From: Verrucomicrobiia bacterium
GTDB lineage: Bacteria > Verrucomicrobiota > Verrucomicrobiia > Limisphaerales > UBA11358
Assembly (NCBI GenBank): GCA_035545995.1
Contig: DASZXH010000044.1
Span: forward strand, 1,527 to 65,526
DNA: 64,000 bases
Direction of reading: 5' to 3'
Shown in pieces: positions 7,062 to 28,151 of the stretch; the stretch's first letter is position 1, and each line of letters opens with the position of its first letter. The notes below the pieces were generated by a model that saw only the letters and a list, made by a program, of their open reading frames with translations, did not search any database and was not told where the DNA came from. A program made the translations under genes and the position numbers.

Positions 7062-7101
7062 CCATAAATCAAACGACAGGATTCAATTGTTAAAATTTTG
7101 T

Positions 7102-10800: not shown

Positions 10801-11349
10801 TCAACGCCTTTTCGCCTTTGGCTTGTCGTCGTCATATTTCACATGAAACCCAATTTCGCGGCGTTTGGGTTCCGGTGGAGACATTAACTGCCGGATGGCA
10901 TCGAAGACAACTTTGAATTGTTTGTCGTATTTCTTCTCCATCGCATCCAGTTTGCGGGCGAGTTCAGCGTTGGAGGCGAGCATCTGCCGCAATTTCACAA
11001 ACGCGCGCACCACCTGCACGCTGGTCTGCGCGGCGCGTTCGCTGTTCAGCACATTCGCCAGCATCAATGCGCCGTGCTCGGTGAAGGCATGGGGTAAATG
11101 AGGTGAAAATTTGAGCCGCACGAGGTTGTCACAATTTGTGATAACCTCGGTTTTCTCGGCTTCGGTAAGTTGAAACATGAAATCTGGCGGGAAACGGTTC
11201 AAATTGCGTTTGACGGCTTGGTTCAAGGACTTGGTGGAAACGCCATAAATGACGGCCAAATCCGAATCCAACATGACCTTCTCGCAGCGAATCAGCAGGA
11301 TGGCCCGCTCGATTCGTTCCATCGGAATCAGGTTTGCATTTTCGCTCAT
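10801..11349 (-). CDS. ORF6N-domain (KilA-N-related) DNA-binding protein
   Basis: 'IRCEKVMLDSDLAVIYGVSTKSLNQAVKRNLNRFPPDFMFQLTEAE' is the ORF6N signature. The start was moved to ATG 11349 so the gene no longer overlaps carB. Confidence 0.8.
   Translation of the reverse strand: MSENANLIPMERIERAILLIRCEKVMLDSDLAVIYGVSTKSLNQAVKRNLNRFPPDFMFQLTEAEKTEVITNCDNLVRLKFSPHLPHAFTEHGALMLANVLNSERAAQTSVQVVRAFVKLRQMLASNAELARKLDAMEKKYDKQFKVVFDAIRQLMSPPEPKRREIGFHVKYDDDKPKAKRR
11122..11148. promoter_or_regulatory. 27-bp palindrome GAGGTTGTCACAA-T-TTGTGATAACCTC inside the ORF6N gene
   Basis: Read directly: 12 of 13 arm positions pair. It shares the 13-mer GAGGTkGTCACAA with the site at 11357-11380. Confidence 0.5.
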
Positions 11350-11356
11350 GGGTTTG

Positions 11357-11380
11357 GAGGTGGTCACAAATTGTGACCGC
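11357..11380. promoter_or_regulatory. palindromic candidate operator GGTCACAA-A-TTGTGACC just upstream of the ORF6N start
   Basis: Perfect 8-1-8 inverted repeat at 11362-11378, ending 13 bp from the ATG at 11349. Confidence 0.5.
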
Positions 11381-11383
11381 CCT

Positions 11384-13665: not shown

Positions 13666-15960
13666 TTATCCGCCAAAGTTTTTCGTTTCGTGAATTTCTT
13701 CAAACAGCGTGCCGTCGGGAATTTCGCGCGGGGTTTGTTTTTTCATGTGAACCAATCCGTGCCAGCAGAGCCATAAAAGCGGCAGCGTGCCGCCGACGAT
13801 GAACAGCGCGTCGCCGGGCAAACGCAGCCATTCAAACAACGAATTGGCGTGGCTGGAAATGAATTTCAACGACCGCGCGTCGTAATAACTGACGCTGACG
13901 GAGTGATAGAGTTGAATCAAACCGAGCGGAAACAGTGTGGCGAAAACCATCCACGCGAGGCCGAGGTTGAGCGACCAAAAACTGATTTTCGCGGCGCGGT
14001 CGCTCCACAATTTTTCGGGAATCATGTAGCGCAGACAAAAGAGCGCGAGGCCGACGGCCAGCATTCCATAAACGCCCATCATCGCGGCGTGGCCGTGATT
14101 GGCGGTGAGCGCGGTGCCGATTTCGTAATAGGAAACAATCGGCAGGTTGATGAGAAATCCGAAAATGCCCGCGCCGAGAAAGTTCCAAAAACCGACGGAC
14201 GCCAGAAACATCACCGACCAGAAATGCGGAAACGGCGTTTTCGCATTGGATTCCTGCTGCGCGCCGAGTTGGAGAAAGCTCCACGCTTCGACGGTCAGGA
14301 ACGTGAGCGGAATCACTTCCGCCGCCGAGAAAAACGCGCCCATCGCCATGTGCAACGCCGGTTCGCCGGAAAAATAAACGTGGTGCATCGTGCCGATGAC
14401 GCCGCCCGCCGAATACAAAACCACGTCGAGATAAATCAGCCGCAACGCGACGCGCTGATGGACGACGCTGAGCAGCACGAAAATGTAGGCGACCATGACC
14501 GTCGTGAACAATTCGAGAAAATCTTCGACCCACAAATGCACGACCCAAAACCGCCAGAAATCCGTCGTGGTGAAATTGGAATTGGTGTGCACGAGCAGCC
14601 CAACAGCGTAAAACGCGGGAATGGAAAGCGCGGCGAAGAAAAACAGCCACGGCATATTGCCCATGTGCTCGTCGCGCAGGCGATGGCGCAGACCGCGAAA
14701 AAGGATGACGACCCAAAACGTGAGGCCGACGGTCAGCAGGATTTGCCAGAAACGTCCCAAATCCAGAAACGTAAAACCTTGATTGCCGAACCACGACCAA
14801 CCGCGTTCAATCCAGTGAAACACGCCCGCGTATTCGCCCGCCATGCTGCCGAAAACGACGAGCGCGAGCGCGCCGAGCAGCAAATAAGACAGGACGTTTT
14901 GTCCGCGCGGTTCGCGTCCGGTGATCATCGGCGCGAGAAAAATTCCGGCGGCAAGATAAGATGTGGCCACCCAAAAAATCGCCAGTTGCAGATGCCACAT
15001 GCGCGCGAGGTTGAACGGCAAAATTTGCGCGAGGTCGAAGCCGAAGAAATTGGAAATTTCCGCGCGATAATGTTCCGCCGCGCCGCCGAACATCGTTTGC
15101 AGGAAAAACAGCAGCGCCATGACGAAGAAAAATCCTGCGCACGCGCGTTGCGCCGGCGTGAGCATGACTTGATCGGGCGGACGAAACGAAATGCGCTGTT
15201 CCTCGCGTCCGTGCCAGCCGAGAAAATTCCAGCGTCCAAACGCGGCGAACAACAGCCCGATGCCGCCGAGCAGCGCGGCGAGCGAAAGCATACTCCAGAC
15301 GACGGCTTCCGCCGTGGCGTGATTGTTCACGAGCGATTCCGGCGGCCAGTTGTTCGTGTAGGAATAATTTTTGTTTGGCCGCAGCGTCGAACCCGCCCAC
15401 GCGGACCAACTGAAAAACGCGGTGAGTTGCCGGATTTTTTCCGGGTCGGTGATAGCGTTTGGGCGCAAACCAAATTTTGTCGTGGGCGAACCAAAAAATT
15501 CGCCGTAGTAAGCGGTGAGTTTTTGAAACGCGTCGGCTTGCGCGTCGCTGTAAATCAAAACGCCGGTTGCGGCGTCGTAACGATTCGTTTTGAAATCGGC
15601 GACGGTTTTTTCATGCGCGACGTCCAAAGCGTTTCCGCCGTAAAAATCAATCGTCATTTCGGCGGCGCGATGCAAATAGCCCGCCGTGAAATCCGGGCCG
15701 AGCCACGCGCCGTGGCCGAAAATCGAGCCGTATTCCATCAACCCGTTTTGCAGAAAAACTTCCTGCCCGGCGGTGATATCCGCGCCGGTGAACAAAACTT
15801 TTCCGCTGGCGTCCGTGACTTTGGCGGGAATCGGCGGCTCGTCGGTGTAAGTGTAATACGCGAGCAGTCCCATGATGAAAAAACCGAACAGCATCACGAG
15901 CGCGACGGCTTGCAGCCAGCCTTTGGAAACGAGCAGGGTTTTATTCGGAGATTCGTTCAT
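13666..15960 (-). CDS. norZ: quinol-dependent nitric-oxide reductase (qNOR), single-subunit NorZ/NorB type
   Basis: 764 aa with an N-terminal TM helix and a periplasmic extension, followed by a 12-TM haem-copper-oxidase core ('HLWVEDFLELFTT', 'GTMHHVYFSG', 'NHGHAAMMGVYG'). Confidence 0.9.
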   Translation of the reverse strand: MNESPNKTLLVSKGWLQAVALVMLFGFFIMGLLAYYTYTDEPPIPAKVTDASGKVLFTGADITAGQEVFLQNGLMEYGSIFGHGAWLGPDFTAGYLHRAAEMTIDFYGGNALDVAHEKTVADFKTNRYDAATGVLIYSDAQADAFQKLTAYYGEFFGSPTTKFGLRPNAITDPEKIRQLTAFFSWSAWAGSTLRPNKNYSYTNNWPPESLVNNHATAEAVVWSMLSLAALLGGIGLLFAAFGRWNFLGWHGREEQRISFRPPDQVMLTPAQRACAGFFFVMALLFFLQTMFGGAAEHYRAEISNFFGFDLAQILPFNLARMWHLQLAIFWVATSYLAAGIFLAPMITGREPRGQNVLSYLLLGALALVVFGSMAGEYAGVFHWIERGWSWFGNQGFTFLDLGRFWQILLTVGLTFWVVILFRGLRHRLRDEHMGNMPWLFFFAALSIPAFYAVGLLVHTNSNFTTTDFWRFWVVHLWVEDFLELFTTVMVAYIFVLLSVVHQRVALRLIYLDVVLYSAGGVIGTMHHVYFSGEPALHMAMGAFFSAAEVIPLTFLTVEAWSFLQLGAQQESNAKTPFPHFWSVMFLASVGFWNFLGAGIFGFLINLPIVSYYEIGTALTANHGHAAMMGVYGMLAVGLALFCLRYMIPEKLWSDRAAKISFWSLNLGLAWMVFATLFPLGLIQLYHSVSVSYYDARSLKFISSHANSLFEWLRLPGDALFIVGGTLPLLWLCWHGLVHMKKQTPREIPDGTLFEEIHETKNFGG

Positions 15961-16053: not shown

Positions 16054-16067
16054 TTGACTTAAATCAA
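16054..16067. promoter_or_regulatory. FNR/Dnr-type box TTGACttaaATCAA upstream of norZ
   Basis: One mismatch to the TTGAT-N4-ATCAA consensus. It lies 94-107 bp upstream of the norZ ATG, in the 120-bp feoB-norZ spacer. Confidence 0.6.
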
Positions 16068-16080: not shown

Positions 16081-18117
16081 TTAAGCGAAGCCGAAATGTC
16101 GCAACGTTTGATAAACAATCAGCGCCGCAACGTAAGCCAGACCGCTCATGTAGGCGATTTGAAACAGCGGCCATTTCCACGAATTCGTCTCGCGGCGCAC
16201 GACAGCGGTCGTCGAAAGGCATTGCGCCGCCAGAATGTAAAACACGAGCAGGCTCGCGCACGTCGCCACGCTGAAAACGGGCGCGCCGTCCGAGCGCGTC
16301 GCGCGCCGCAGCGAATCGTAAAGCGAACCGCGATTGTTTTCCGCCGCGTCGCCGCCGACGCCATAAACAATGGCCAGCGTCGAAACAATCACTTCGCGCG
16401 CGGCGAACGAACTCACGATGCCGATGCCGATTTGCCAGTCGAAGCCAAGCGGACGGATGACCGGCTCAATGGTGCGGCCAATTTTTCCGGCGAAGGAATT
16501 TTGCAAGGAATTTTGCTGCGTCAGCCGGTCGGCGTTCGCGCGAATTTCATTTGCCTTTTGGGCGTCGCCGGATTTTTCAAGTTGCGCGGCCTGTTGCGTC
16601 ATGGCAATGGCCGGCGCGGGCGTCGCGGATTTGGGATAATACGACAGCGCCCAGAGAATCAGCGAAACGGCCAGAATGATCGTGCCCGCCTGTTTCACGA
16701 AAATTTTCGCGCGGTCGAACGTGTGCAGCAGCGCGACGCGCAGCGCGGGAATCCGGTATTGCGGCAGTTCAATCATGAGCGGTTTGCCGCCGCCGGGCAA
16801 AATCGTTTTGCGGAAAACCAGCGCGGCGACCAGCGCGGCGGCGACGCCCGTGGCGTAAGCGCCGGTAAAAATGGCGGCGGCCTTCAGCGGCGAATCGGGA
16901 AAAATCAGCGCCGTGACCATCGCATAGACCGGAATGCGCGCCGAGCACGTCAGCAGCGGCGTGATTAAAATGGTGACGAGCCGGTCGCGCGAATTTTCGA
17001 TGACGCGCGCGGACATGATGGCGGGAATCGCGCAGGCGTGCGCCGAAAGCATCGGCACGAACGCTTTTCCGGGAAGGCCAAACCGCCGCATGATTTTGTC
17101 CATCACAAACGCAGCACGCGCGAGGTAGCCGGTGTCTTCGAGCAGTGACAGCGCGAAAAACAAAATGCAAATCTGCGGCAGAAAAACAAGGATGCCGCCG
17201 ACGCCGCCGATGACGCCGTTGACCAGCAAACTTTGCAAATCGCCGGCGGAAATTTTTTCCGCGACGAATCCGCCGAGCGTGGCAAATAAATGGTCAATCA
17301 AATTCATCGGAATTTTCGCCGCCCAAAAAATCAGCGCGAACAGCGAAAGCATGACGGCCATGAAAACGGCGACACCGGCGACCGGATGCGTGAAGATTTT
17401 GTCCAATCTGTCCGTCCAAACGGAACGCCTGATGGCGCGCGCATCCAGAACGCGTGTGGAAATTTTCTCCGTCCAGTCGTAGCGCACCTGAAACGCGCAG
17501 CCGGAACAACCGGCGCAATTCAATTTGAAATTGCCAGCCGTTTCCGGCGTCGGAATTTTGGCGAGCCGCGCGATTTCATTTTTCAATTCGGAAACGCCCG
17601 AACCGTCGCGCGCGGAAATCGAAACGACGGCGCAGCCGAGTTCGTTTCGCAATTTGGGAACGTCAATCCAAATTCCGTCGCGCCGCGCCATGTCCATCAT
17701 GTTCAGCGCGACGATGACAGGACGGTTCAATTCGAGAATCTGACTGACGAGAAACAAATTGCGTTCGAGATTGGTCGCGTCCACGACGACGAGCGCGGCG
17801 TCCGGCGCAAGATTTTCCACGCCGCAACGCAAGGCGTCGCCGGCGATTTTTTCTTCCGGCGACAAACCATCCAAACTGTAAAGTCCGGGCAAATCCACGA
17901 CGACAATTTGCTCCCTGCCAATTTGAAAGCGTCCGGTTTTGCGCTCGACGGTCGTGCCGGGAAAATTCGCGGTTTTTGCGCGCAGGCCGGTGAGCGCGTT
18001 GAACAAGGTGGTTTTGCCCGCGTTGGGATTGCCGACGAGCGCGAGCATGAATTTTTTTTGCGCGCGCGATTTCGTTGGCGGTTCAATCACATTGTCGGAA
18101 TGGTGACAATTGCTCAT
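16081..18117 (-). CDS. feoB: ferrous iron transporter FeoB
   Basis: 'LVGNPNAGKTTLFNALTG' is the G1 motif of the G-domain. 'FPGTTVE' and 'DLPG' follow, and then a polytopic membrane domain. Confidence 0.9.
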   Translation of the reverse strand: MSNCHHSDNVIEPPTKSRAQKKFMLALVGNPNAGKTTLFNALTGLRAKTANFPGTTVERKTGRFQIGREQIVVVDLPGLYSLDGLSPEEKIAGDALRCGVENLAPDAALVVVDATNLERNLFLVSQILELNRPVIVALNMMDMARRDGIWIDVPKLRNELGCAVVSISARDGSGVSELKNEIARLAKIPTPETAGNFKLNCAGCSGCAFQVRYDWTEKISTRVLDARAIRRSVWTDRLDKIFTHPVAGVAVFMAVMLSLFALIFWAAKIPMNLIDHLFATLGGFVAEKISAGDLQSLLVNGVIGGVGGILVFLPQICILFFALSLLEDTGYLARAAFVMDKIMRRFGLPGKAFVPMLSAHACAIPAIMSARVIENSRDRLVTILITPLLTCSARIPVYAMVTALIFPDSPLKAAAIFTGAYATGVAAALVAALVFRKTILPGGGKPLMIELPQYRIPALRVALLHTFDRAKIFVKQAGTIILAVSLILWALSYYPKSATPAPAIAMTQQAAQLEKSGDAQKANEIRANADRLTQQNSLQNSFAGKIGRTIEPVIRPLGFDWQIGIGIVSSFAAREVIVSTLAIVYGVGGDAAENNRGSLYDSLRRATRSDGAPVFSVATCASLLVFYILAAQCLSTTAVVRRETNSWKWPLFQIAYMSGLAYVAALIVYQTLRHFGFA

Positions 18118-18124
18118 GGCGTTT

Positions 18125-18385
18125 TCAGGGTTGCGCGCAATGTTCCGGCGTGCAGATTTCGACGCGGACGCGCGCGGCCAGTTCCGCCGAGAGGCCGAGC
18201 CGCGAATTGAAAACCTTGAGAATCAGCGGATCGCCGCCGCGCACCAGTTCCACGCGGCGACCGGCGCAAACGCCGAGCGTCTTCAGCCGCTGGATTTCCT
18301 CGTCGTCCGTCGCGATGTCGCGGACGATGCCGCAAACGCGCGGCGGCAAATCGTTCAACCGGACGAATGAGCGTGTCGCTTTCAT
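18125..18385 (-). CDS. feoA: FeoA-domain protein
   Basis: 86 aa with 'LKTLGVCAGRRVELVRGGDPLILKV', an SH3-like FeoA pattern. It lies directly upstream of feoB. Confidence 0.8.
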   Translation of the reverse strand: MKATRSFVRLNDLPPRVCGIVRDIATDDEEIQRLKTLGVCAGRRVELVRGGDPLILKVFNSRLGLSAELAARVRVEICTPEHCAQP

Positions 18386-18491
18386 TTTTTAATCGAGTCT
18401 GGCAAATCGGCGGACCATCCGCTGTTGTTCGATTGCCAAAAGCCAGCCTCAAATTGCTCTGAAAATTTAACCGGTGGATTCGCCGATTTCT

Positions 18492-18505
18492 TTGATTTGA
18501 GTCAA
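18492..18505. promoter_or_regulatory. FNR/Dnr-type box TTGATttgaGTCAA in the feoA / cupin divergent region
   Basis: One mismatch to the consensus. The centre is 41.5 bp upstream of the cupin ATG (18540). CAGAAT at 18527-18532 is spaced as a -10 element for a class II promoter. Confidence 0.6.
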
Positions 18506-18539
18506 AACATTGGCGCGGCGCTTGTGTCAGAATTTCAAC

Positions 18540-18893
18540 ATGAGCGAAAAGCCCCTGATTGATTTGACGCAGGAAAAAATCCTTTCGCTGGCGGCGGAAA
18601 CGAAATTTGCCGCGAACGGAATTGTCAGCCGCACTTTGTTGCGCGCCGAAAATGCGCGCGCCGTGCTGTTCGGTTTTGCCGAGGGGCAGGAATTGACCGA
18701 GCACACTTCCACGCAACACGCGCTGATACAAATTTTGTCCGGCGAATGCGAATTTTTTCTCGCGGGCAAACCGCACGCGCTCAAGGCCGGCGATTTGCTT
18801 TACATGCCGCCGCATTTGCGCCACGCGGTAAAAGCCACGCAACCATTTTCCATGCTGCTGACGCTTTTCAAACCGGAGAATCAAAATGCCTGA
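18540..18893 (+). CDS. cupin-domain protein
   Basis: 'GQELTEHTSTQHALIQILSGECEF...GDLLYMPPHLRHAV' is a cupin_2 pattern. The start was moved from 18510 to 18540 because 18510 abuts the FNR-type box. Confidence 0.75.
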   Translation: MSEKPLIDLTQEKILSLAAETKFAANGIVSRTLLRAENARAVLFGFAEGQELTEHTSTQHALIQILSGECEFFLAGKPHALKAGDLLYMPPHLRHAVKATQPFSMLLTLFKPENQNA

Positions 18894-19407
18894 AAAAATT
18901 GTGACCCTTGACGTTCGCGAAGACATCCGCAACGGGCGCGAACCGTTCTCAAAAATCATGGCCGCCGTCGCGGAATTGCGCGCGGACGAAAACTTTTTGC
19001 TGCTCGCGCCGTTTGAACCAAAGCCACTGTTCGGCCTTTTAGCCCGGCAAGGTTTCAATCATTCGGCGCGTGAAATTGAAAACGGCGATTGGGAAATCAT
19101 TTTCGCCCGCAACGGAAACAATTTTGAATCAAACAACCACCAACATAAAGCGCCTGCGGTTGAAAAATCGGCGATCCGCAACCGGCCATCGAAAATGATT
19201 GAAGTGGATGTGCGCGGACTCGAACCGCCGCAGCCGATGGTGAAAATTCTCGAAGCGCTCACGGCGCTGCCCGATGGCGCGGAAGTCCGCGCCCGCACCG
19301 ACCGCCGCCCGATGCACCTTTACGCGCAACTCGAAGCGCGCGGCTTCACCGGCGAAACCGAGGAACAAAATGATGGCAGTTTTCTTACCCATATCCGCGC
19401 GCGTTGA
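18886..19407 (+). CDS. tandem DUF2249-domain protein
   Basis: Domain 1 ('LDVREDIRNGREPFSKIM...LLLAPFEPKPL') aligns by eye with the 27184 gene product. Domain 2 is 'VDVRGLEPPQPMVKILEAL...'. There is an 8-bp overlap with the cupin gene. Confidence 0.7.
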   Translation: MPEKIVTLDVREDIRNGREPFSKIMAAVAELRADENFLLLAPFEPKPLFGLLARQGFNHSAREIENGDWEIIFARNGNNFESNNHQHKAPAVEKSAIRNRPSKMIEVDVRGLEPPQPMVKILEALTALPDGAEVRARTDRRPMHLYAQLEARGFTGETEEQNDGSFLTHIRAR

Positions 19408-20767
19408 AGCGTTGAAACGAAATGCGTTAAAGCGGAACGCGTCTGGCAACGCTTCAACGCTTCAACCCTTCAATGTTTCAACGGCATCCATCGCCCTGCC
19501 GCTTTCGTTCATCGTCGCCGGCTTGTTCGCGCTTTTTGCCGGCGCAATCTGGCTGGTCGCGCAGCCGCAAATTCTCACGGCGTATCATTACAACGCCAGC
19601 GCCGTCGCCGCGATGCATTTGTTCGCGCTCGGCTGGCTTGGCAGCGTCGTCATAGGTGCGATGTATCAACTCGTGCCGGTCGCGCTGGAAACAAAACTAT
19701 TCAGCGAACAGCTCGCGAAAATTCAGTTCGCTTTTCACGTCGTTGGCTTCGTCGGAATGGTTTTAGCGTTTCGCGTTTGGAATATGAAATTTGTCGGCGC
19801 GTTCGGAACTGTTTTCACCATCGGCGTCGCCCTGTTCATTTACAACGTCGCGCGAACGCTGGTGCGGATTCCGAAATGGAATGTTATTGCCGCCGCCGTC
19901 GCGTCCGCGCTCGCGTGGATTTCGCTGGTGGTCGCCGCCGGACTTTTGATTGTGTCCGCGAAAACCGGCCACGCGAATTTCATGTTCCGTTTCAATCCCA
20001 TCGGCGCGATGCACGCGCACGCGCATTTGGGCGCGCTGGGATTTTTCATCATGCTCATCGTCGGCGTGTCTTACAAATTGATTCCGATGTTCACGTTGAG
20101 CGAAATTCAAAATCATCACCGCGCGCTGGCATCCGTGATTTTGCTCAATGCCGGACTCGCCGGTTCGTTCATTTCCATTTTATTGCAACTCGCGCTCAAA
20201 CCGCTGTTCGCGCTCATCATTGTCGCCGCGCTCGCGATTTATGGCTGGGAAATGATGGCGATTTTGCGCGCGCGAAAACGCCGCGCGCTGGATTGGGGCG
20301 TGAGATATTTTCTGACGGCCATTTCATTGCTCGCGCCGCTGTCAATTCTCGCGCTCGTTCTGTCGTGGCCGAAACTGCCGCTCAATCCGTTCACCGGCCA
20401 GCTTGAAAATGTTTATGGCTTCGTCGCGTTTGTCGGTGTCATTTCGTTCGCGGTCATCGGGATGCTTTACAAAATCATTCCGTTTCTCGTCTGGTTCGGA
20501 ACTTACAGCAAACACATTGGACGCGCGCAAGTGCCGGCGCTGGCGGAAATGGTTTCGGAAAAATGGCAAAGGCTCGGCTACTGGATTTTTCTCGCGGCGC
20601 TGGCCGTGACCATTTTCGGAATTTTATTTTCAAACGCGCTGGTCGCACGAATTGGTAGCGCATTTTTCGCCGCAAGCCTGGCGACGCTTGCGCTCAATGT
20701 CGGAAAAATTCTGTCGCATTGTTTTCAACCGAAACTTGCGCCGCTGGCCGCGCCAAAAAAATTATGA
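19370..20767 (+). CDS. 12-TM His-rich integral membrane protein of unknown function (possibly NnrS-like)
   Basis: About 12 hydrophobic helices. The motif G-x2-Y-[QK]-[LI]-[VI]-P occurs three times, and 'MHAHAHLG' is present. The start is uncertain: ATG 19370 overlaps the upstream gene, and TTG 19412 is an alternative. Confidence 0.5.
   Translation: MMAVFLPISARVEALKRNALKRNASGNASTLQPFNVSTASIALPLSFIVAGLFALFAGAIWLVAQPQILTAYHYNASAVAAMHLFALGWLGSVVIGAMYQLVPVALETKLFSEQLAKIQFAFHVVGFVGMVLAFRVWNMKFVGAFGTVFTIGVALFIYNVARTLVRIPKWNVIAAAVASALAWISLVVAAGLLIVSAKTGHANFMFRFNPIGAMHAHAHLGALGFFIMLIVGVSYKLIPMFTLSEIQNHHRALASVILLNAGLAGSFISILLQLALKPLFALIIVAALAIYGWEMMAILRARKRRALDWGVRYFLTAISLLAPLSILALVLSWPKLPLNPFTGQLENVYGFVAFVGVISFAVIGMLYKIIPFLVWFGTYSKHIGRAQVPALAEMVSEKWQRLGYWIFLAALAVTIFGILFSNALVARIGSAFFAASLATLALNVGKILSHCFQPKLAPLAAPKKL
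19402..19483. repeat. array of 8-mers CGTTGAAG (forward) then CTTCAACG (reverse), long imperfect hairpin
   Basis: Read directly: GTTGAAGCGTTG at 19403-19414 pairs with CAACGCTTCAAC at 19447-19458. The same 8-mer family occurs at 43244-43275. Confidence 0.6.
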
Positions 20768-21081
20768 CCGGAACAAAAATTGATGAAGCCGCCGTTCTCG
20801 AGACGCTGCGCCAAATCATTGACCCGGAAATCGGCGTCAACATCGTTGACCTCGGCTTGATTTACGGCGTGAGCATCGCGGACGGAATGGTGCGCGTGAA
20901 AATGACGCTGACCACGCCCGGTTGTCCGATGCACGACAGCATTTCGGGGGGCGTCAAAAACACGCTGCTCGAGCTTGAAGGCGTCACCGAGGCGGAAGTG
21001 GAAATTGTTTTCGAGCCGCCGTGGCATCTGTCGTTGATGAGCGAACAGGCGCGCATCGCCTTGCGCGTCGGAAATTTTTAA
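20764..21081 (+). CDS. DUF59 / MIP18-family metal-sulfur cluster assembly protein (SufT-like)
   Basis: 'IIDPEIGVNIVDLGLIY...MTLTTPGCPM' is the classic DUF59 motif. An ATGA overlap links it to the upstream gene. Confidence 0.85.
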   Translation: MTGTKIDEAAVLETLRQIIDPEIGVNIVDLGLIYGVSIADGMVRVKMTLTTPGCPMHDSISGGVKNTLLELEGVTEAEVEIVFEPPWHLSLMSEQARIALRVGNF

Positions 21082-21093
21082 CTGAAACAAAAC

Positions 21094-21399
21094 ATGAAAA
21101 ACACCAACCAAAATCAAATTCCCGCCGACAAAATCATGGACGTTCGTCCGATTCCGTGTTCCATCAAACACGGCCAGATCATCCAAAAATGGCTCGACCT
21201 CGCCGTCGGCGATTATTTCGTGCTGCTCAACGACCACGACCCGGTGCCATTGTATTATCAATTCGCCGCCGAATGGCCGCAGGCGTTTTCGTGGGAGCAT
21301 CTGGTCAAAGGACCGGACGAATTCCGCGTTAAAATCACCAAACTGAAATCCGGCGCGGAAAATGCCAAAACAGAAACCGCGTGTTGCGGCAGCCATTGA
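21094..21399 (+). CDS. DUF2249-domain protein
   Basis: 'DVRPIP...HGQIIQKWLDL..GDYFVLLNDHDPVPLYYQF...FSWEHL..GPDEFRVKITK' is the canonical DUF2249 pattern as recalled. Confidence 0.75.
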   Translation: MKNTNQNQIPADKIMDVRPIPCSIKHGQIIQKWLDLAVGDYFVLLNDHDPVPLYYQFAAEWPQAFSWEHLVKGPDEFRVKITKLKSGAENAKTETACCGSH

Positions 21400-21400
21400 A

Positions 21401-22210
21401 ATGAAAATGGCGGCGACCACTTCCGAGACTGTTTCCACGCGCAAAATCATCAAATTGATTTTGCCGAAAGAACACGGAAGCTGGTCGCTCGCGCTGGAGC
21501 CGGTTGCACTCGGATTGCTGACCGCGCCGACGGCGGCGGGCGGCGCGCTGGCCGTCGCCGCATTCGCGGGATTTTTCCTGCGGCGACCGCTGAAAATTTT
21601 TTTCCGCGAGGAAAATCGCGAACGATGGAAAACGGCGCGCGCCGCAATCTTTATTCTGGCAACCATTGCCATCGCCGGTTTGCTGTTGGCTATAAAATTT
21701 GGCGGCGCGAAAAATCTTTGGCCGCTGATTCCGGCGGCCGTTGCCGGAATGGCATTCGCGTTTTTCGATTTGCGCAATGAAGCGCGTGAAGGCGCGGCGG
21801 AAATTTCCGGCGCCATCACCTTTGGAATTTTGCCGGCCGCCTTTGCGACATTGGCCGGATGGAACTTTGTCGCGGCAATTTCTCTCGCGGCGGTGATGCT
21901 CGCGCGCTCCGTGCCGACGGTTTTATTCCTGCGAACGTATTTGCGAATCAAAAAAGGCAAAGGCGTAAAAATTTTTCCGGCGATTTTCGCGGCCATAATT
22001 GGATTTCTTCTCATCGTCTGGCTGGCCATTTCAAAATTTGCACCGTGGATTTCCGTCGTTTTTGTCCTGCTGATGGCCGCGCGAACAATTTATTTGCTCG
22101 CCAGCCGTCCGCGTTTCGCCGCCAAAACTCTCGGCATCACGGAAACAACTTTTGGCGCGACGATGGTTTTGACTTTGGCCGTTGCGTGGAGATTTTTTCA
22201 GCAACAATAG
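21401..22210 (+). CDS. YwiC-like membrane protein
   Basis: 'LPKEHGSWSLALEPVALGLL' starts a polytopic protein of about 270 aa. The start was set at ATG 21401, 2 nt after the upstream stop. Confidence 0.6.
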   Translation: MKMAATTSETVSTRKIIKLILPKEHGSWSLALEPVALGLLTAPTAAGGALAVAAFAGFFLRRPLKIFFREENRERWKTARAAIFILATIAIAGLLLAIKFGGAKNLWPLIPAAVAGMAFAFFDLRNEAREGAAEISGAITFGILPAAFATLAGWNFVAAISLAAVMLARSVPTVLFLRTYLRIKKGKGVKIFPAIFAAIIGFLLIVWLAISKFAPWISVVFVLLMAARTIYLLASRPRFAAKTLGITETTFGATMVLTLAVAWRFFQQQ

Positions 22211-22268: not shown

Positions 22269-22282
22269 TTGACTTGGGTCAA
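22269..22282. promoter_or_regulatory. FNR/Dnr-type box TTGACttggGTCAA upstream of the DGC-porin-nirK operon
   Basis: A perfect palindrome with 2 mismatches to TTGAT-N4-ATCAA. GATAAT at 22305-22310 is spaced 22 bp from the box, as in class II promoters. Confidence 0.6.
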
Positions 22283-22335: not shown

Positions 22336-22770
22336 ATGAACAACGAAATTCTGCCATCGGACAAAACGGGAAAATCCAAGCCGTTGTCGGAAAAACCCGC
22401 CGTGGTTTATGCCTGCTCCGGCTGCTCGGACGCGGGCGAAATCGCCGACCGCGTCGCGCGGCAACTCACGCGCGAAGGCGCGGCACAAATGTCCTGCCTC
22501 GCCGGAATCGGCGGGCGCGTGAAAAGTTTGGTGATGAAAGCCGAAAACGCCGGACGCATTTTGGTTGTGGACGGCTGTCCGCTGAATTGCGCGGCGCACA
22601 CGCTTCGGCTCGCGGGGTTTCAACATTTCGAGCATCTCGAATTGCACAAAATCGGCATCCGCAAAGGCTCGTGCCCGGCGACGGATGAAAAAATTTCCGC
22701 CGGTGTCGCGGCGGCCAAAGAAATTCTTTCACGCCATCAAACCATCAATGAAATCTGTCCTGAAATATGA
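22336..22770 (+). CDS. DGC-domain putative zinc-binding protein
   Basis: 'VVYACSGCSDAGEIADR' and 'LVVDGCPLNCA' give the DGC motif plus four Cys. Confidence 0.7.
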   Translation: MNNEILPSDKTGKSKPLSEKPAVVYACSGCSDAGEIADRVARQLTREGAAQMSCLAGIGGRVKSLVMKAENAGRILVVDGCPLNCAAHTLRLAGFQHFEHLELHKIGIRKGSCPATDEKISAGVAAAKEILSRHQTINEICPEI

Positions 22771-24188
22771 AAAATAATTGCAACCGTAAAAAAGTTCTTG
22801 CCGGCGCGCTCGCGTTAAGCGCCGCTGCCGCGTTGGCGCAACAAAAACCATTCATACAGGCGGGCACGGCGCAGCCGCCGACGTTGCCGCCGCTGCAAAC
22901 GACGAACGCGCCCGCCGTTGCAATGGGCGCGAACACCAATGCGCCGTCGTTCAGCAATTTGTCCGACAAATTTTTCAACGGCGAAATTCCCGACGCCATC
23001 GCTAAAGGAAAATTTAATTTTGATGCGCGGCTCCATTACGAGCAGGCGGATGAAGAAGGCGTTTCCGGCGTCACCAAAAATTCCTACGCGCCGACGTTGC
23101 GCACGATGTTCGGTTACACGACCGCGCCGCTTTACGGATTTCAGGGGATGCTCGAAGGTTTGAACGTCACGGCGTTCGGCGGGCAAAATAATTACAACGC
23201 CGCCGGTTCAAACGGCCAAGGCAGCCGTCCAGTTGTGGCCGACCCACCGTTGACGCGACTCGACCAGGCATGGTTGAGCTGGAATTACACGAATTATTTT
23301 TCCATCAAGGGCGGGGAACAACGCATCAATCTGGACAATCAACGTTTCATCGGCGATTCCAATTGGCGTCAGAACATTCAGACGTTTGATGCCGTCAGCC
23401 TCGGCGGCGAGCCGGTTGCCGGACTGGATTTGTATTACGCCTACGTTTGGGACGTTCATCGCGTTTTCGGAAACGTGAGCGGATTGCCCGCAGCGAACAC
23501 GGATTTTGATTCGCGCTCGCATTTGATCAACGTCTCGTATTCCGGCTGGAAATACGGCACGTTCACCGGCTACGACTATTTGCTCGACTTGCGCAATTTG
23601 GCCGGCGACGCCAATTCCTGCGAAACATTCGGCGGCGCTTTCGCCGGCAACGCGCCCGTCACCGATAAAATCGCCGCCGATTATCGCGCGGAATTCGCGT
23701 ATCAAAAAAATTGGGCCGGCAGCCCGTTGCGCTACGACGCGACGTATTACAATCTCGAGGGTGGCTTGAACCTCAAACCGGTCGCGTTCGGCGGCGGCTA
23801 CGAAGTTCTCGGCAGCGGCGCAAATTCCGGCGCGGGCGGCGGACGCGCGTCATTTCGCACGCCGCTGGCCACGCTTCACGCGTTCAACGGCTGGGACGAT
23901 GTTTTTCTGACGACGCCCGCGAACGGACTCGACGATTTATACGGCTACCTTCAAGTCACTTTGCCCGCGCAAATTCCCGTGCGGTTTGTGTTTCACAAAT
24001 TCGACGCCGATTTCGGCAACGGCGATTACGGCAACGAGTTTGACATCATGGCGTCCAAAAAATTCGGCAAGCACTGGAGCGCGCTGGTCAAATACGCCTA
24101 TTTTCAGGGACAAGACGCGGCCTCGCCGTCCATCGCCAGCAATGTGGACATCCAAAAATTCTGGGCGCAGGTGGAATTTACTTTTTGA
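22767..24188 (+). CDS. outer-membrane beta-barrel porin (alginate-export-like)
   Basis: It has a signal peptide 'ALALSAAAALA', alternating amphipathic strands and a C-terminal '...WAQVEFTF'. An ATGA overlap links it to the DGC gene. Confidence 0.6.
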   Translation: MKNNCNRKKVLAGALALSAAAALAQQKPFIQAGTAQPPTLPPLQTTNAPAVAMGANTNAPSFSNLSDKFFNGEIPDAIAKGKFNFDARLHYEQADEEGVSGVTKNSYAPTLRTMFGYTTAPLYGFQGMLEGLNVTAFGGQNNYNAAGSNGQGSRPVVADPPLTRLDQAWLSWNYTNYFSIKGGEQRINLDNQRFIGDSNWRQNIQTFDAVSLGGEPVAGLDLYYAYVWDVHRVFGNVSGLPAANTDFDSRSHLINVSYSGWKYGTFTGYDYLLDLRNLAGDANSCETFGGAFAGNAPVTDKIAADYRAEFAYQKNWAGSPLRYDATYYNLEGGLNLKPVAFGGGYEVLGSGANSGAGGGRASFRTPLATLHAFNGWDDVFLTTPANGLDDLYGYLQVTLPAQIPVRFVFHKFDADFGNGDYGNEFDIMASKKFGKHWSALVKYAYFQGQDAASPSIASNVDIQKFWAQVEFTF

Positions 24189-24217
24189 ACCGGCAAAAAA
24201 TTGAACCGAAAAATTAT

Positions 24218-25720
24218 ATGAAAACGAATGTTCTGAAAATCAGCTTCGCAAGCCTTCTGTTGACGGTTGCGGCGATTTGTCCTTCAAAATCGGAAACGCA
24301 AGCCGCCGCAATTCCTGAAATTATTGGCAGCGAAAACGCCGTTTTGACCGACGCGCCAAACGTGCCGCCGCCCATCACGCGCACATACGCGACGAAAGTC
24401 ATTGTGAATCTCGAAGTCAAGGAAGTCACCCGGCGGCTCGCCGACGGCGTGGATTACACGTTTTGGACGTTTGGCGGCAGCGTGCCGGGAAAATTCATCC
24501 GCATCCGCGAAGGCGACGAAGTGGAATTTCATCTGGCCAACGCGCCCGACAGCAAAATGCCGCACAACATTGATTTGCACGCTGTCAGCGGGCCGGGTGG
24601 CGGCGCGGCGGCGTCATTTGTCGCACCGGGACACGAATCGCAATTTACTTTCACGGCGCTGAATCCGGGACTTTACGTTTATCACTGCGCGACCGCGCCG
24701 GTCGGAATGCACATCGCTAACGGAATGTATGGCTTGATTCTCGTCGAACCGGCCAACGGCCTGCCGAAAGTGGACAAGGAATTTTACATCGTGCAAGGCG
24801 AGTTTTACACCGCCGGAAAATTCGGCGATCCCGGCTTGCAACCGTTCGACTTGGACAAGGCGGTTGACGAGCGTCCGGCTTACGTCGTTTTCAACGGCGC
24901 GGTCGGTTCGCTCACGGACAGCAACGCGCTCACGGCGCGCGTCGGCGAAAAAATCCGTTTCTTCGTCGGCAACGGCGGACCGAATCTCGTCAGCTCATTT
25001 CACGTCATCGGAAATATTTTCGACACGGTTTATGACGAAGGCGGGACGACGCCGATCCACAACGTGCAAACGACGTTGATTCCGGCGGGCGGCGCGGCGA
25101 TGGTGGAATTCACGCCGAAAGTTCCCGGCACTTACACTTTTCTCGACCATTCCATTTTGCGCGCGTTCAACAAAGGTTGCATCGGGCAATTGAAAGTGAC
25201 CGGCGACGCGAACGGCGCGATTTTTTCCGGCAGGCAAAGCGACACCATTTTTACCGAACCGGAAACCAATTCTGTTCCGGCGGTCAAAGTTGAGCCGGTG
25301 GCCGCGAAGCCGGCGAAAAATTCCCAATCCGTTCCGGCAAACGCAACTCCAGCCGTTGCAGCGCAAATGGAATCGGGTAGACAAGTTTATCAACAAATTT
25401 GTTTCGTTTGCCATCAACCGAACGGCCTCGGCGTGCCGAATCAAATCCCGCCGCTGGCCGGCTCGGATTTTCTCGCGCATGAAAAAGTGGAATTGATCCG
25501 CACGTTGATTCAAGGACGTTCCGGCGAAATCGTCGTCAACGGGAAAAAATTCAGCGGCATCATGGTTCCGCAGGCCGATTTGACCGACGAGCAAATCGCC
25601 AACGTGCTGACGTTTGTGCGCAACAACTGGAACAATTCCGGCGACGCGGTGACGGCGGACGAAGTCCGCGCCGCGCGCGCCGGAGCGAAGCCCGTGGCCG
25701 CCGCAAATTCGTTTGAATGA
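24218..25720 (+). CDS. nirK: copper-containing nitrite reductase NirK with C-terminal cytochrome c domain
   Basis: 'HNIDLHAVSGPGGG' carries T2Cu/T1Cu His ligands. 'YVYHCATAPVGMHIANGM' gives T1Cu Cys-His-Met. The C-terminal 'CFVCHQPNG' is a CxxCH after a Pro/Ala linker. Confidence 0.9.
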   Translation: MKTNVLKISFASLLLTVAAICPSKSETQAAAIPEIIGSENAVLTDAPNVPPPITRTYATKVIVNLEVKEVTRRLADGVDYTFWTFGGSVPGKFIRIREGDEVEFHLANAPDSKMPHNIDLHAVSGPGGGAAASFVAPGHESQFTFTALNPGLYVYHCATAPVGMHIANGMYGLILVEPANGLPKVDKEFYIVQGEFYTAGKFGDPGLQPFDLDKAVDERPAYVVFNGAVGSLTDSNALTARVGEKIRFFVGNGGPNLVSSFHVIGNIFDTVYDEGGTTPIHNVQTTLIPAGGAAMVEFTPKVPGTYTFLDHSILRAFNKGCIGQLKVTGDANGAIFSGRQSDTIFTEPETNSVPAVKVEPVAAKPAKNSQSVPANATPAVAAQMESGRQVYQQICFVCHQPNGLGVPNQIPPLAGSDFLAHEKVELIRTLIQGRSGEIVVNGKKFSGIMVPQADLTDEQIANVLTFVRNNWNNSGDAVTADEVRAARAGAKPVAAANSFE

Positions 25721-25729
25721 AATCCGATT

Positions 25730-26563
25730 ATGAATTTTAACGCAAAAACGCAAAGACGCGACGGTGCCAGGATTGGGGAAATTTTCCTTTGCTGCGTCCT
25801 CGCCTCTTTGCGTTTTTGCGTTGATTCTTCCGCCGCCACCAACGCGAGCATCGCGCCCGCTGGCATGGTTCAAATTCCCGCCGGCGTTTATCGTCCGCTG
25901 CTTAAATCCAAAACCGACGCGGCGGAAATTGCCGTGAAAAGTTTTTATCTGGATGTCGAGCCGGTTTCCAACGGCGAATTTTTGGAATTCGTCCGCGCCC
26001 ATCCGCAATGGCAACGCTCAAACGTCGCGCGCCTTTTCGCCGACAAATCGTATTTGAAAAATTGGGCGGGTGATTTGGAGCCGGGGAAAAATGCGCCGTC
26101 GAACGCACCGGTCACATTCGTTTCCTGGTTCGCGGCGAAAGCCTACGCGCAATGGAAACACGAACGGCTGCCGACCATCGCCGAATGGGAACTCGCGGCA
26201 AATGCCAGCGCGACGCGCGCCGACGGCGAAAATGACCCGCAATTCAAGGCGGAAATCCTGAAGTGGTATTGCGAATCGTCCGCGACGGAATTTCTGCCGG
26301 TCGGCGTCGGCGGGAAAAATTTTTACGGCGTCCGCGATTTGCACGGCCTGGTTTGGGAATGGACCGCCGATTTCAATTCCGCAATTTTATCCGGCGATTC
26401 GCGCGATGACGGCGCCGACGCGAAATTGTTTTGCGGCGCGGGCGCGCAAAGCGCGCGCGCCGTGGACGATTATCCGGCGTTCATGCGATTTGCTTTTCGC
26501 AGTAGTCTCAAGGCGGATTATTGCATCCACAATTTGGGCTTTCGCTGCGCCAAAGATTTATGA
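25730..26563 (+). CDS. nirV: formylglycine-generating-enzyme (SUMF1) family protein, NirV-like
   Basis: The motifs are 'FYLDVEPVSNGEFLEFV', 'RLPTIAEWELAA', 'GLVWEWTADF' and 'NLGFRCAKD'. The start is ambiguous between 25730 (through the REP hairpin) and ATG 25865. Confidence 0.75.
   Translation: MNFNAKTQRRDGARIGEIFLCCVLASLRFCVDSSAATNASIAPAGMVQIPAGVYRPLLKSKTDAAEIAVKSFYLDVEPVSNGEFLEFVRAHPQWQRSNVARLFADKSYLKNWAGDLEPGKNAPSNAPVTFVSWFAAKAYAQWKHERLPTIAEWELAANASATRADGENDPQFKAEILKWYCESSATEFLPVGVGGKNFYGVRDLHGLVWEWTADFNSAILSGDSRDDGADAKLFCGAGAQSARAVDDYPAFMRFAFRSSLKADYCIHNLGFRCAKDL
25739..25822. repeat. REP-like hairpin: 22-bp arms AACGCAAAAACGCAAAGACGCG / CGCCTCTTTGCGTTTTTGCGTT
   Basis: Read directly: arms at 25739-25760 and 25801-25822 with 1 mismatch and a 40-nt loop. 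It sits between the nirK stop and the FGE domain. Confidence 0.8.
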
Positions 26564-27174
26564 AAACAAAACTCCCAACCGCCATCGTGGCCGCGCTCGT
26601 TTTCCAACTTGGAATTTCGGGCGCGACAGAAACCAATTTCATTCATCGCCCGTGCTGCGCGATGGATTTGCCCGCGAAAAAATTCACCGACAAATCGCTT
26701 TATCAAGTCGAATCGGTTTGGACGACGGACGCGCAAAAACAAATCAAGCTGGGCGCGCTCGCGGGAAAACCGCAGGTCGTTTTGATGTTTTACTCGCGCT
26801 GCACGACGGCCTGCCCGATTTTGGAAAATGAATTGCGACAAATTGAATCCGCGCTGACGTCGGAAACACGCGCGAAAACCGGTTTTACCTTGATTTCATT
26901 CGACAGCGAGCGCGACACACCGACGGCGCTCGCCGAATATCGCAAAGTTTGGAATTTGCCGGAAAATTGGACGCTGCTTTCCGGCCAGCCGGACGACGTT
27001 TTGGAATTGGCCGCGTTGCTCGGAATTCAATTCAAGAAATCCGGCGATGGCGAAATCGCGCACTCAAACGTCGTCACGCTTTTGAACGCGCAAGGCGAAA
27101 TTGTTTTTCAGCAAACCGGATTGAACGCTGGCGCAGATGAAATGGTTCGCCGGATTGAACAAATTGTGAAATGA
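26560..27174 (+). CDS. SCO1/SenC-family copper chaperone
   Basis: It has a signal peptide, 'VLMFYSRCTTACP' (CxxxC) and the downstream 'IAHSNVV'. An ATGA overlap links it to nirV. Confidence 0.85.
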   Translation: MKTKLPTAIVAALVFQLGISGATETNFIHRPCCAMDLPAKKFTDKSLYQVESVWTTDAQKQIKLGALAGKPQVVLMFYSRCTTACPILENELRQIESALTSETRAKTGFTLISFDSERDTPTALAEYRKVWNLPENWTLLSGQPDDVLELAALLGIQFKKSGDGEIAHSNVVTLLNAQGEIVFQQTGLNAGADEMVRRIEQIVK

Positions 27175-27183
27175 TCAATCGTT

Positions 27184-27438
27184 ATGCCGCCGCTGAGCCA
27201 GTTCAAACGCTTTGACGTTCGCGATTTGATTCGTCGCGGCATTGAGCCGTTTCCCGAAATCCGCCGGCGCGTGGACGCGCTCAAGCCGGACGAAGGATTG
27301 ATTGTCGTCGCGCCGTTTTTGCCGTCGCCGCTCGTGGAAATTTTGAGCAGCGAGGGATTTTCATCGAAAGTGGAACGCGGCGGCGGCGCGGACTGGCTGG
27401 TTTATTTTTGGCGCGAAACTGATTTGATCTCATCATGA
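27184..27438 (+). CDS. DUF2249-domain protein
   Basis: 'FDVRDLIRRGIEPFPEIRRRVDALKPDEGLIVVAPFLPSPL' parallels domain 1 of the 18886 gene. An ATGA overlap links it to the regulator gene. Confidence 0.7.
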   Translation: MPPLSQFKRFDVRDLIRRGIEPFPEIRRRVDALKPDEGLIVVAPFLPSPLVEILSSEGFSSKVERGGGADWLVYFWRETDLISS

Positions 27439-28151
27439 GCGCTGTCACGGATTACAAAACGATTGCGCTGATCAACACGTTGCGCAGTTGCCAGCTTTTC
27501 ACGGGCCTGCCGCAATCGGATTTGGAAAAAATCGCGGACGTGACGGTTTTGAAATCGCTGGAAAAGGACGATTATCTCTTTCACGAAGGCGATCCGGCGC
27601 ACGGCTTTTATGTCGTTCAACGCGGCGCGGTGAACGTGCATCGCGTCAGTGCCACGGGCAAGGAGCAGGTCATTCACGTTTTTCGCGCGGGCGACTCGTT
27701 TGCGGAGGTCGCGCTGGCTTCCGAACGCGGTTATCCCGCCGATGCGCGCGCCATCGAACCGACGCAGGTTTTGCTCGTGCAAAAGGGCGGCATTTTGGAA
27801 TTGCTCAAGTGCCAGCCGGAACTGGCGCTGCGGATGCTCGGCTCGATGAGCAGCCATTTGCGCGTGCTGGTCGGGCAGCTTGAAGATTTGACGTTGAAGG
27901 ACGTCGAAACACGGCTGGCGAACTGGCTGGTGAAGCGCTGCGCCAATCCGCAAGGCGAAACGCCGGCGAAAATCGAGTTGACCCTGACCAAGCGGATGCT
28001 CGCGGCGGAATTGGGCACGGTAAGCGAAACGTTTTCGCGGACGCTGGCGAAATTCCGCGCGCAAAAACTGATCGCCGTTAAAGGCAAAACCATCACCGTC
28101 CTGTCGCCCGCAAAATTGAGCGCGCTGTTGCGGCGCAATTTGGGGGAATGA
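27435..28151 (+). CDS. Crp/Fnr-family transcriptional regulator, Dnr/NnrR-like (no Fe-S Cys cluster)
   Basis: It has a cNMP-binding-like fold ('LFHEGDPAHGFYVVQRGAV') and a C-terminal HTH 'LAAELGTVSETFSRTLAKF' with the E--SR recognition motif. It lacks the N-terminal Cys cluster of FNR. Confidence 0.85.
   Translation: MSAVTDYKTIALINTLRSCQLFTGLPQSDLEKIADVTVLKSLEKDDYLFHEGDPAHGFYVVQRGAVNVHRVSATGKEQVIHVFRAGDSFAEVALASERGYPADARAIEPTQVLLVQKGGILELLKCQPELALRMLGSMSSHLRVLVGQLEDLTLKDVETRLANWLVKRCANPQGETPAKIELTLTKRMLAAELGTVSETFSRTLAKFRAQKLIAVKGKTITVLSPAKLSALLRRNLGE

Follow-up and report, generated by a model that had tools for sequence, protein, structure and literature searches.

The 64,000-nucleotide stretch of Verrucomicrobiia contig DASZXH010000044.1 analysed here, the whole of which is referred to as the window, carries at 18540-22210 an operon of six co-directional genes that specify a cupin, a protein with two DUF2249 domains (2xDUF2249), a twelve-helix membrane protein, a DUF59 protein, a further DUF2249 protein and a YwiC-like membrane protein. 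The question raised by this locus, which lies close to a nitric oxide (NO) reductase gene, is which of these proteins belong together and what they do for a denitrifying cell. An earlier note, made from the sequence without database searches, had proposed that their combination forms an undescribed system for sensing, scavenging or repairing NO damage to metal centres. The present analysis established that the conserved unit is smaller, consisting of 2xDUF2249, the membrane protein and DUF59 in that order, and that linkage is universal for no more than these three of the six. The membrane protein fits the description of a haem-copper oxidase (HCO) homology protein, for which reason it is termed HCOH throughout. 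As to function, we tentatively favour the view that the triad is an accessory module under the control of an FNR/DNR-family regulator, which would serve to maintain iron and haem cofactors and would not be a pathway enzyme.

A conserved triad within a six-gene operon

The six genes, all on the plus strand, were identified from the open reading frame (ORF) list in combination with Pfam and NCBIfam, and a public gene call made independently for an identical contig of 5.9 kb lists the same six products; the nearest relatives are metagenome-assembled genomes of Verrucomicrobiia/Limisphaerales, the membrane protein being 86% identical to its top match. The first gene (18540-18893) encodes a single-domain cupin of 117 aa (Pfam Cupin_2, E 1e-10) and overlaps by 8 bp with the gene for the 173-aa 2xDUF2249 protein (18886-19407; Pfam DUF2249 in two stretches, E 2e-35), which in turn overlaps by 35 bp, or by 38 bp with an alternative ATG at 19370, with the gene for the 464-aa HCOH (19373-20767; a weak, partial match to Pfam COX1, E 5e-10). 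The HCOH gene shares a 4-bp ATGA overlap with the gene for the 105-aa DUF59/SufT-like protein (20764-21081; Pfam FeS_assembly_P, E 1e-23), which is separated by a 12-nt gap from the gene for a single-domain DUF2249 protein of 101 aa, here called DUF2249c (21094-21399; Pfam E 2e-21). The last gene, for the YwiC-like membrane protein (Pfam YwiC, E 7e-19), ends at 22210 and either overlaps DUF2249c by 38 bp or follows it after a 1-nt gap, depending on whether its start is placed at 21362 (282 aa) or at 21401 (269 aa). The ORFs, Pfam matches, junctions and an FNR-type box at 18492-18505 bear out the operon-like unit, with its overlaps and its box, that the earlier note had described. No recognisable signal peptide was present in the N-termini of the soluble operon proteins, as read by eye.

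Conservation of this arrangement was examined in 80 species-level genomes, almost all of them Limisphaerales/Verrucomicrobiia, and in 80 metagenome loci that are 27-76% identical to a distant sub-family query and for which a 5-sequence alignment served as seed; DUF59 neighbours were counted with a trimmed DUF59 hidden Markov model. A 2xDUF2249 gene lies directly upstream of HCOH in 73 of the 74 Limisphaerales loci with enough flanking sequence, and DUF2249, either fused or split into two genes, occupies that position in 55/59 divergent metagenome loci. DUF59 is encoded downstream of HCOH in all 74 Limisphaerales loci, in 7/7 further loci and in 62/63 divergent metagenome loci, with a modal spacing of -4 (ATGA), and the triad order is kept in about 90% of the 80 divergent metagenome loci. 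The arrangement is seen in more than 150 independent loci and is for this reason far from chance, so that a neighbourhood unique to one genome is ruled out. The association with DUF2249 and DUF59 that the earlier note had assumed is thereby near-universal, whereas its extension to all six genes is lineage-specific: the cupin is present in 41/66 long Limisphaerales loci, and is the lead gene in about half of the loci of that set, but in just 5/32 diverse metagenome loci; for DUF2249c the counts among long loci are 48/66, 7/7 and 12/32; and YwiC is present in 5/80 related loci.

The wider surroundings of the triad vary with lineage. A crp gene is found in 38/66 long Limisphaerales loci and in 21/32 long divergent metagenome loci, the string nirK-nirV-sco1-DUF2249-crp adjoins the triad in about one third of the Limisphaerales-set loci, and norZ is located near the triad in several divergent metagenome loci, while at one locus (L089) an NnrS gene follows the DUF59 gene of the triad. 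Melioribacter and Bacteroidota display the gene order DUF2249, DUF1858+2xDUF2249, HCOH, DUF59 and a 151-aa single-unit HCOH, and their triads adjoin Crp, or Rrf2 together with HemN and nosZ. In Opitutaceae, including Horticoccus luteus, the triad is found either with a cytochrome c + COX1 pair and with Rrf2, or with HemN. By tblastn of plasmid records HCOH was also found on 18 Thermus and 7 haloarchaeal megaplasmids. In a variant arrangement on pHBOR02 of Halogeometricum borinquense (L170, 4402-7206), a 469-aa two-histidine HCOH follows a small gene with a molybdopterin-oxidoreductase domain in place of 2xDUF2249, and DUF59 does not adjoin it; the opposite strand nearby encodes a DUF2249 protein and two cupins. 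Genes of the IS605 OrfB/TnpB family sit beside the module in two unrelated loci (L164, 8345-9583; L170, 9871-11127), and these neighbours, together with the megaplasmid location in Thermus and haloarchaea, fit lateral mobility of denitrification islands.

A GC-rich hairpin of 8 pairs followed by a T run was noted at 21048-21079, within the last DUF59 codons of the window, and could represent a partial terminator; it marks the point where the universal triad stops and the lineage-specific genes for DUF2249c and YwiC start. Terminator-like sites occurred at chance level in a consensus scan of the region (20 vs 17 expected), and the sigma-70 and terminator scans are neutral as to transcription signals inside the operon.

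HCOH and its partner proteins

The AlphaFold2 model of HCOH, with a predicted local distance difference test score of 80.6 and a predicted template modelling (TM) score of 0.80, displays the twelve-helix fold of HCO subunit I, as Foldseek comparison with cbb3 CcoN, bo3, aa3 and NO reductase subunit I gave TM-scores of 0.55-0.71. Profile scores are far less typical: Pfam COX1 is matched at 39.3 bits vs a gathering cut-off of 34.8, covering only profile positions 306-398 of 436, and NCBIfam ccoN at 27.3 bits vs a cut-off of 583. A profile search of 1.84 billion representatives at E<=1e-3 assigned 2643 clusters at 50% identity to the HCOH family. Just two histidines are invariant, both in 46 diverse members and in an alignment of 455 full-length sequences: H82 in helix 2 (codon at 19616-19618), which aligns with the low-spin haem ligand histidine in helix X of cbb3 CcoN, and H216 in helix 6 within the motif MHAHAHLG (codon at 20018-20020); the HCOHs of Thermus and Halogeometricum retain these two alone. 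Only two of the six canonical HCO ligand histidines are thus kept across the family, which has no conserved CuB/FeB binuclear site, and 29/100 HCOH representatives have no histidine at any of five further tracked positions. Only the sub-families of Limisphaerales and Opitutaceae have H122, H218 and H449 all fixed, these being absent or variable elsewhere, and the three could there form a second metal or haem site. H214 and H218 would share one face of their helix, with H216 on the opposite face.

As the canonical six-histidine set is absent, HCOH is therefore not considered an oxidase or NO reductase, an identity that failed the ligand-histidine test, and the name 'cbb3-type cytochrome c oxidase subunit I', under which some public sources list it, is, judged by these ligand positions, wrong for the family. 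The earlier description of the protein as 'haem/Cu-type' likewise has to be narrowed, since just two histidines are invariant and the copper ligands are missing. Most probably HCOH binds a single b-type haem with bis-His ligation and lacks a binuclear catalytic centre. It fits the definition of HCO-homology proteins in the sense of Pei et al. 2014, which reportedly describes proteins of three four-helix units with two conserved histidines, likely one haem, and denitrification or NO contexts; those proteins reportedly share with HCOH the twelve helices, the best similarity to HCO helices 9-12, the two histidines and a DUF2249 neighbour. A passage of a Haloferax study cites Pei et al. 2014 as tying DUF2249 to the HCO superfamily (PMC11218638).

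Several members of the family depart from the common architecture. Two representatives of about 535 aa, P0229 and P0231, are HCOH-DUF59 fusions with DUF59 at the C-terminus; P0086 and P0120, which were also considered as such fusions, were rejected, being longer only by extended ends. In P0149 (862 aa) two full HCOH copies are fused in tandem, a hint that HCOH may act as a dimer. Stand-alone four-helix proteins of 144-151 aa, which carry an HxH motif, are matched by a single unit of the HCOH profile, and such proteins accompany the triad in Melioribacter, Bacteroidota and Thermus (L081, 9579-10034; L083, 5874-6329; L169, 5650-6084), the window having none. Membership of HCOH in the NnrS family was rejected on Pfam evidence, as the window protein gave no match to PF05940 at E<=1 and only one of the 46 family members matches the NnrS profile, weakly. 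Homology at the level of the superfamily remains: NnrS and HCOH are both twelve-helix proteins that align with an hhalign probability of 93% over one four-helix unit, histidine included, and both are encoded beside a Crp-type NO regulator, although obligatory DUF2249 and DUF59 partners are not reported for NnrS, a member of the NnrR/NorR regulons. It is a membrane protein that contains haem and copper and plays an auxiliary part in resistance to NO (PMC3345576).

The DUF2249 proteins gave no meaningful match to the PDB by sequence, while the three genes score 120.9, 76.2 and 50.1 bits against a PF10006 cut-off of 29.5. A single-sequence AlphaFold2 model of the 2xDUF2249 protein consists of two beta-alpha-beta-alpha-beta-beta domains joined by a disordered linker, for which the best PDB folds are SirA-like 3hz7, YeeD in the YeeE-YeeD complex, and TusA; domain 2 is superposed on 3hz7 by Foldseek with a target-normalised TM-score of 0.83 and a root-mean-square deviation of 1.5 A, and also matches the TusA Pfam family (E 3e-8). 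At the position of the Cys-Pro motif of TusA (CPxP) the protein reads a conserved GLEPPQP. The catalytic persulfide cysteine of TusA and YeeD is thereby absent, and a TusA-type sulfur relay by DUF2249 is therefore excluded. The YeeE-YeeD (TsuA-TsuB) pair nevertheless resembles 2xDUF2249/HCOH in that a small cytoplasmic TusA-like protein is encoded beside a membrane partner; it differs in the catalytic cysteine that YeeD possesses and in the fold of YeeE, which HCOH does not share. BLASTP distinguishes three DUF2249 sub-types within the operon, a1 and a2 in the two-domain protein and c after DUF59, as had been proposed. The fourth copy at 27184, sub-type d, resembles a1, a2 and c being distinct, and the likeness of its product to domain 1 of the 18886 gene, first seen by eye, amounts to 38% identity (E 4e-17). 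DUF2249c has a conserved His25 and NDHDP motif, accompanied in this lineage by Cys22 and a C-terminal CxxH.

SufT/DUF59 proteins act in Fe-S protein maturation (PMC4982691). The window DUF59 resembles SufT-type proteins in its fold family, in the TxxxCP cysteine motif, which it carries as a conserved TTPGCP, and in its size as a stand-alone domain, but it lies outside a suf operon, with no suf genes adjoining it, and is coupled, or in other members fused, to a membrane protein. It also scores below the equivalog cut-offs of TIGR02945 (111.7 vs 143.4 bits) and TIGR03406 (105.1 vs 202.6 bits). A literature search combining DUF59 with denitrification returned no relevant papers. For the cupin, whose conserved residues are EHTS, E70 and H94, the closest solved structures (3rns and 1yhf) are structural-genomics cupins of unknown function. 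A literature search for YwiC returned author-name noise or nothing, and the proposal that YwiC is a distant relative of HCOH was rejected at an hhalign probability of 0.7%; in Bacillus subtilis ywiC presumably adjoins fnr and narGHJI.

Predicted promoter, candidate regulator and genomic setting

The intergenic region upstream of the cupin gene contains the FNR/DNR-type palindromic box TTGATTTGAGTCAA (TTGAT-N4-GTCAA) at 18492-18505, centred 41.5 bp 5' of the cupin ATG. An exact TTGAN6TCAA box lies no more than 260 bp upstream of the leading gene of the operon in 54/73 related loci, as compared to about 4 expected from a background frequency of 0.18 per kb. The box is centred exactly at -41.5 from the extrapolated cupin ATG in 32 of 36 cupin-first loci, and at -44.5 in eight loci that begin with 2xDUF2249. 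In class II FNR/CRP promoters the centre of the site lies at -41.5 relative to the start of transcription, and the fixed distance of 41.5 bp between box and ATG, taken together with this geometry, therefore predicts a leaderless mRNA. The promoter is thus probably of the class II FNR/CRP-dependent type with an mRNA that starts at the A of the cupin ATG. This fits the absence of a Shine-Dalgarno sequence before the cupin ATG, the following two genes being preceded by GGAG and GAGGA. If the transcription start is assumed at this A, as the conserved -41.5 spacing would have it, the sequence CAGAAT at 18528-18533 on the plus strand is a possible -10 element.

A candidate activator is encoded within the window by a Crp/Fnr-family gene at 27435-28151 on the plus strand (Pfam cNMP_binding and HTH_Crp_2), of which the product has an E-x-x-S-R recognition helix and contains cysteines only at C19, C125 and C168, without the N-terminal cysteine cluster that binds the [4Fe-4S] centre of FNR. 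This combination places it with regulators of the DNR/NnrR/FixK kind, all its matches to the NCBIfam models for FtrB, Fnr and FixK falling under the cut-offs. The gene overlaps by 4 bp (ATGA) with that of the single-domain, a1-like DUF2249d (27184-27438, plus strand; Pfam E 2.5e-13). The DUF2249d>crp pair (27184-28151) is found in many related loci, which suggests that the DUF2249 protein works with the Crp/Fnr regulator. Two further FNR-type boxes are candidate targets, one at 16054-16067 upstream of the qNOR gene and one at 22269-22282.

The operon lies within a denitrification island, with the NO reductase qNOR (13666-15960, minus strand; NorB_cytochrome_c-like and COX1) and feoAB before it and the nirK gene string after it, so that its location beside NO reductase was correctly noted and can be extended to a nitrite reductase and a regulator. 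The string at 22336-28151, behind the box at 22269-22282, comprises genes for a DGC-domain protein, a porin, NirK with its cytochrome c domain, a NirV-like protein, SCO1, DUF2249 and Crp. The copper nitrite reductase NirK, in which the cytochrome c domain is C-terminal, is encoded at 24185-25720 and is followed by the genes for the FGE-sulfatase-like (NirV-like) protein and SCO1, a string found in about one third of related loci; the DGC-domain gene that leads it (22336-22770, motifs CSGCS and DGCP), behind its own FNR-type box, occurs in 15/66 related long loci. The feoAB genes (16081-18385), situated between qNOR and the operon, diverge from the intergenic region 18386-18539 that holds the FNR box, of which the centre is about 113 bp from the feoA start, and the box might act both ways. 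FeoAB was rejected as a part of the system, as this adjacency is kept in only 1/66 related loci (L001). At 10801-12889 a 501-aa ORF contains only the N-terminal domains D1-D3 of the carbamoyl-phosphate synthase large chain, about half of a normal carB, and overlaps the start of a gene with an ORF6N domain; this may represent a carB gene that has been split or interrupted, located at the island's edge.

The Thermus drp cluster and a proposed function of the module

That only DUF59 among these proteins has an assigned role, as the earlier note stated, does not hold, as experimental data exist for the DUF2249 proteins DrpA and DrpB of Thermus (PMC6282519). Induction of drp under anoxia and nitrate needs the CRP-type regulator DnrT; loss of either DrpA or DrpB derepresses dnrST and nar, loss of both renders expression nitrate-independent, and the double mutant still produces nitrate reductase protein, which however shows little activity (PMC6282519). 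On plasmid NC_017273.1 of T. thermophilus SG0.5JP17-16 a cluster at 4638-8436, directly after narGHJI-MFS, encodes in succession a DUF2249 protein (72 aa), a DUF1858+2xDUF2249 protein (273 aa), a single-unit HCOH (144 aa), a protoglobin-domain protein, HCOH (383 aa) and DUF59 (103 aa), and all genes from narGHJI through DUF59 share a strand and are spaced by no more than about 50 nt. The first two genes are DrpA and DrpB, with exactly the sizes, positions and architectures reported. Thermus drpAB thus heads a cluster with the same genes as the module of the window, in a less tightly ordered form.

DrpA and DrpB are like the window proteins in belonging to the DUF2249 family and in being controlled by a CRP-type denitrification regulator. 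The two systems differ in the two additional genes that separate drpB from HCOH in Thermus, in the N-terminal DUF1858 of DrpB, which the 2xDUF2249 of the window does not have, and in the absence from the window of a separate DrpA-like gene ahead of 2xDUF2249, sub-type c being located after DUF59 instead; in Melioribacter the DrpB architecture is encoded directly upstream of HCOH. In the genetic study drpAB is treated as bicistronic, co-transcription having been tested for drpA and drpB only, a kat insertion was used, and the genes downstream go unmentioned (PMC6282519). Because of this insertion and of the same-strand genes that follow drpAB so closely, polar effects on HCOH-DUF59 could contribute to the reported defect in nitrate reductase activity.

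In the mechanism proposed for the accessory module, the operon would be activated by an FNR/DNR-family regulator within the N-oxide respiration regulon of a Limisphaerales-like bacterium. HCOH would provide a one-haem, membrane-anchored platform reactive towards NO or redox state, in the manner of NnrS, as its two histidines, fold and homology suggest. The fusions and the translational coupling point to cytoplasmic DUF59 docking at the cytoplasmic C-terminus of HCOH, while the cytoplasmic TusA-like DUF2249 domains may serve as adaptors by analogy with YeeD-YeeE. Together DUF2249 and DUF59 would keep the iron cofactors of the denitrification enzymes (Fe-S, haem and non-haem Fe) assembled or repaired during NO production, and the module may thereby feed back on DNR-type gene expression, with the cupin, the third DUF2249 and YwiC as lineage-specific additions. 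This cofactor-maintenance role draws on the biology of SufT, on the activity defect in Thermus, and on Haloferax, where denitrifying conditions induce DUF2249 genes, of which one is joined to a P-loop Fe-S carrier in a fusion (PMC11218638). The parts do point to haem and iron-centre biology under N-oxide respiration, as the earlier note had it; the three roles named there, sensing, scavenging and repair, are not separable on this evidence, and the operon is expected to respond to NO.

A number of observations weigh against a cofactor-maintenance module. Conserved Cys or His residues with which to bind metal are missing from the DUF2249 sub-types a1, a2 and d, to our knowledge no biochemical mechanism has been defined for DUF59, and Fe-S scaffold, hemerythrin and RIC genes were not found in the window. 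The proposed haem binding and topology of HCOH are drawn from homology only, and the consensus scan found no sigma-70 promoter. Many divergent triad loci have no recognisable N-oxide gene within about 6 kb, so the denitrification link is frequent and not universal. Finally, the Drp phenotypes are mainly regulatory (PMC6282519), which favours a signal-transduction module in which the haem protein would sense NO, O2, nitrate or redox state and signal through DUF2249 to the DNR-type Crp regulator without phosphorylation, along the lines suggested for DrpA/DrpB, with DUF59 as adaptor. The derepression of dnrST and nar when either DrpA or DrpB is missing, and the nitrate-independent expression in the absence of both (PMC6282519), would follow naturally from such a sensor, to which the 4-bp overlap of a single-domain DUF2249 gene with crp in a pair that recurs in many loci, the position of crp as the most frequent triad neighbour in divergent loci (21/32) and the protoglobin-domain protein of the Thermus cluster also lend support. 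An adjacent regulator is however equally expected for a regulated effector, for which nnrR-nnrS offers a precedent; DUF2249 shows neither DNA-binding nor phospho-acceptor features (PMC6282519), no part in signalling is known for DUF59, and both the fusion of DUF59 to HCOH and the enzyme-maturation defect in Thermus point to cofactor work. The sensor is less likely than cofactor maintenance, yet a serious rival to it.

Haem or iron trafficking, in which HCOH would pass haem or iron donated by its cytoplasmic partners, through or within the membrane, to NO reductase, the cytochrome c domain of NirK or other acceptors, appears improbable. Paired invariant transmembrane histidines are typical of haem-handling proteins, and HCOH has two; HemN and a Haem_bd protein neighbour some loci, and FeoAB is divergently adjacent in the window. 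That adjacency is not conserved (1/66), however, no WWD or other haem-handling motif is present in HCOH, and it folds like a redox enzyme subunit, the haem pocket being internal. It is very improbable that HCOH is truly the catalytic subunit of a terminal oxidase or of an NO reductase, a view for which the COX1 score just over the gathering cut-off, the match to the HCO/NO reductase subunit I fold and the second metal site that H122, H218 and H449 could make in Limisphaerales and Opitutaceae might be cited. Against this stand the two of six ligand histidines kept family-wide, the 29% of representatives without a histidine at the five further positions, the confinement of the COX1 match to a short part of the profile, the failure against ccoN (27 vs 583 bits), and the absence from the window of a linked gene for subunit II/III, CcoO/P or NorC. 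An accessory module for cofactor maintenance is thus the reading that we favour, if only tentatively.

It would be an overstatement to call the system undescribed, as HCOH families, the link between DUF2249 and HCO, and the genetics of DrpA/DrpB are already in the literature. What appears to go beyond it is the near-invariant order of the triad across phyla, the HCOH-DUF59 fusions, the two-histidine rule in 455 sequences, the leaderless geometry at -41.5, and the link to the drpAB cluster. A bolder and unlikely proposal, of which the range would take in Verrucomicrobiota, Bacteroidota/Ignavibacteria, Deinococcota and haloarchaea, is that the triad is a very widespread membrane haemoprotein machine coupling NO or redox state at the membrane to the maturation or repair of iron cofactors in enzymes of anaerobic respiration, with the Drp phenotypes as in part its read-outs and, in Limisphaerales and Opitutaceae, H122, H218 and H449 as a second metal site. 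Denitrification islands hold many conserved genes of unknown role, and these roles bear on the release of NO and nitrous oxide. Here a six-gene curiosity is reduced to a module of three genes, nearly unchanged from phylum to phylum and with a regulator site at a precise position, and DrpA and DrpB, the only DUF2249 proteins studied genetically, are now tied to a downstream putative haem membrane protein and an Fe-S assembly factor. If the triad were indeed such a machine, the 'nitrate sensor' phenotypes of Thermus may possibly have arisen through polar effects on HCOH-DUF59.

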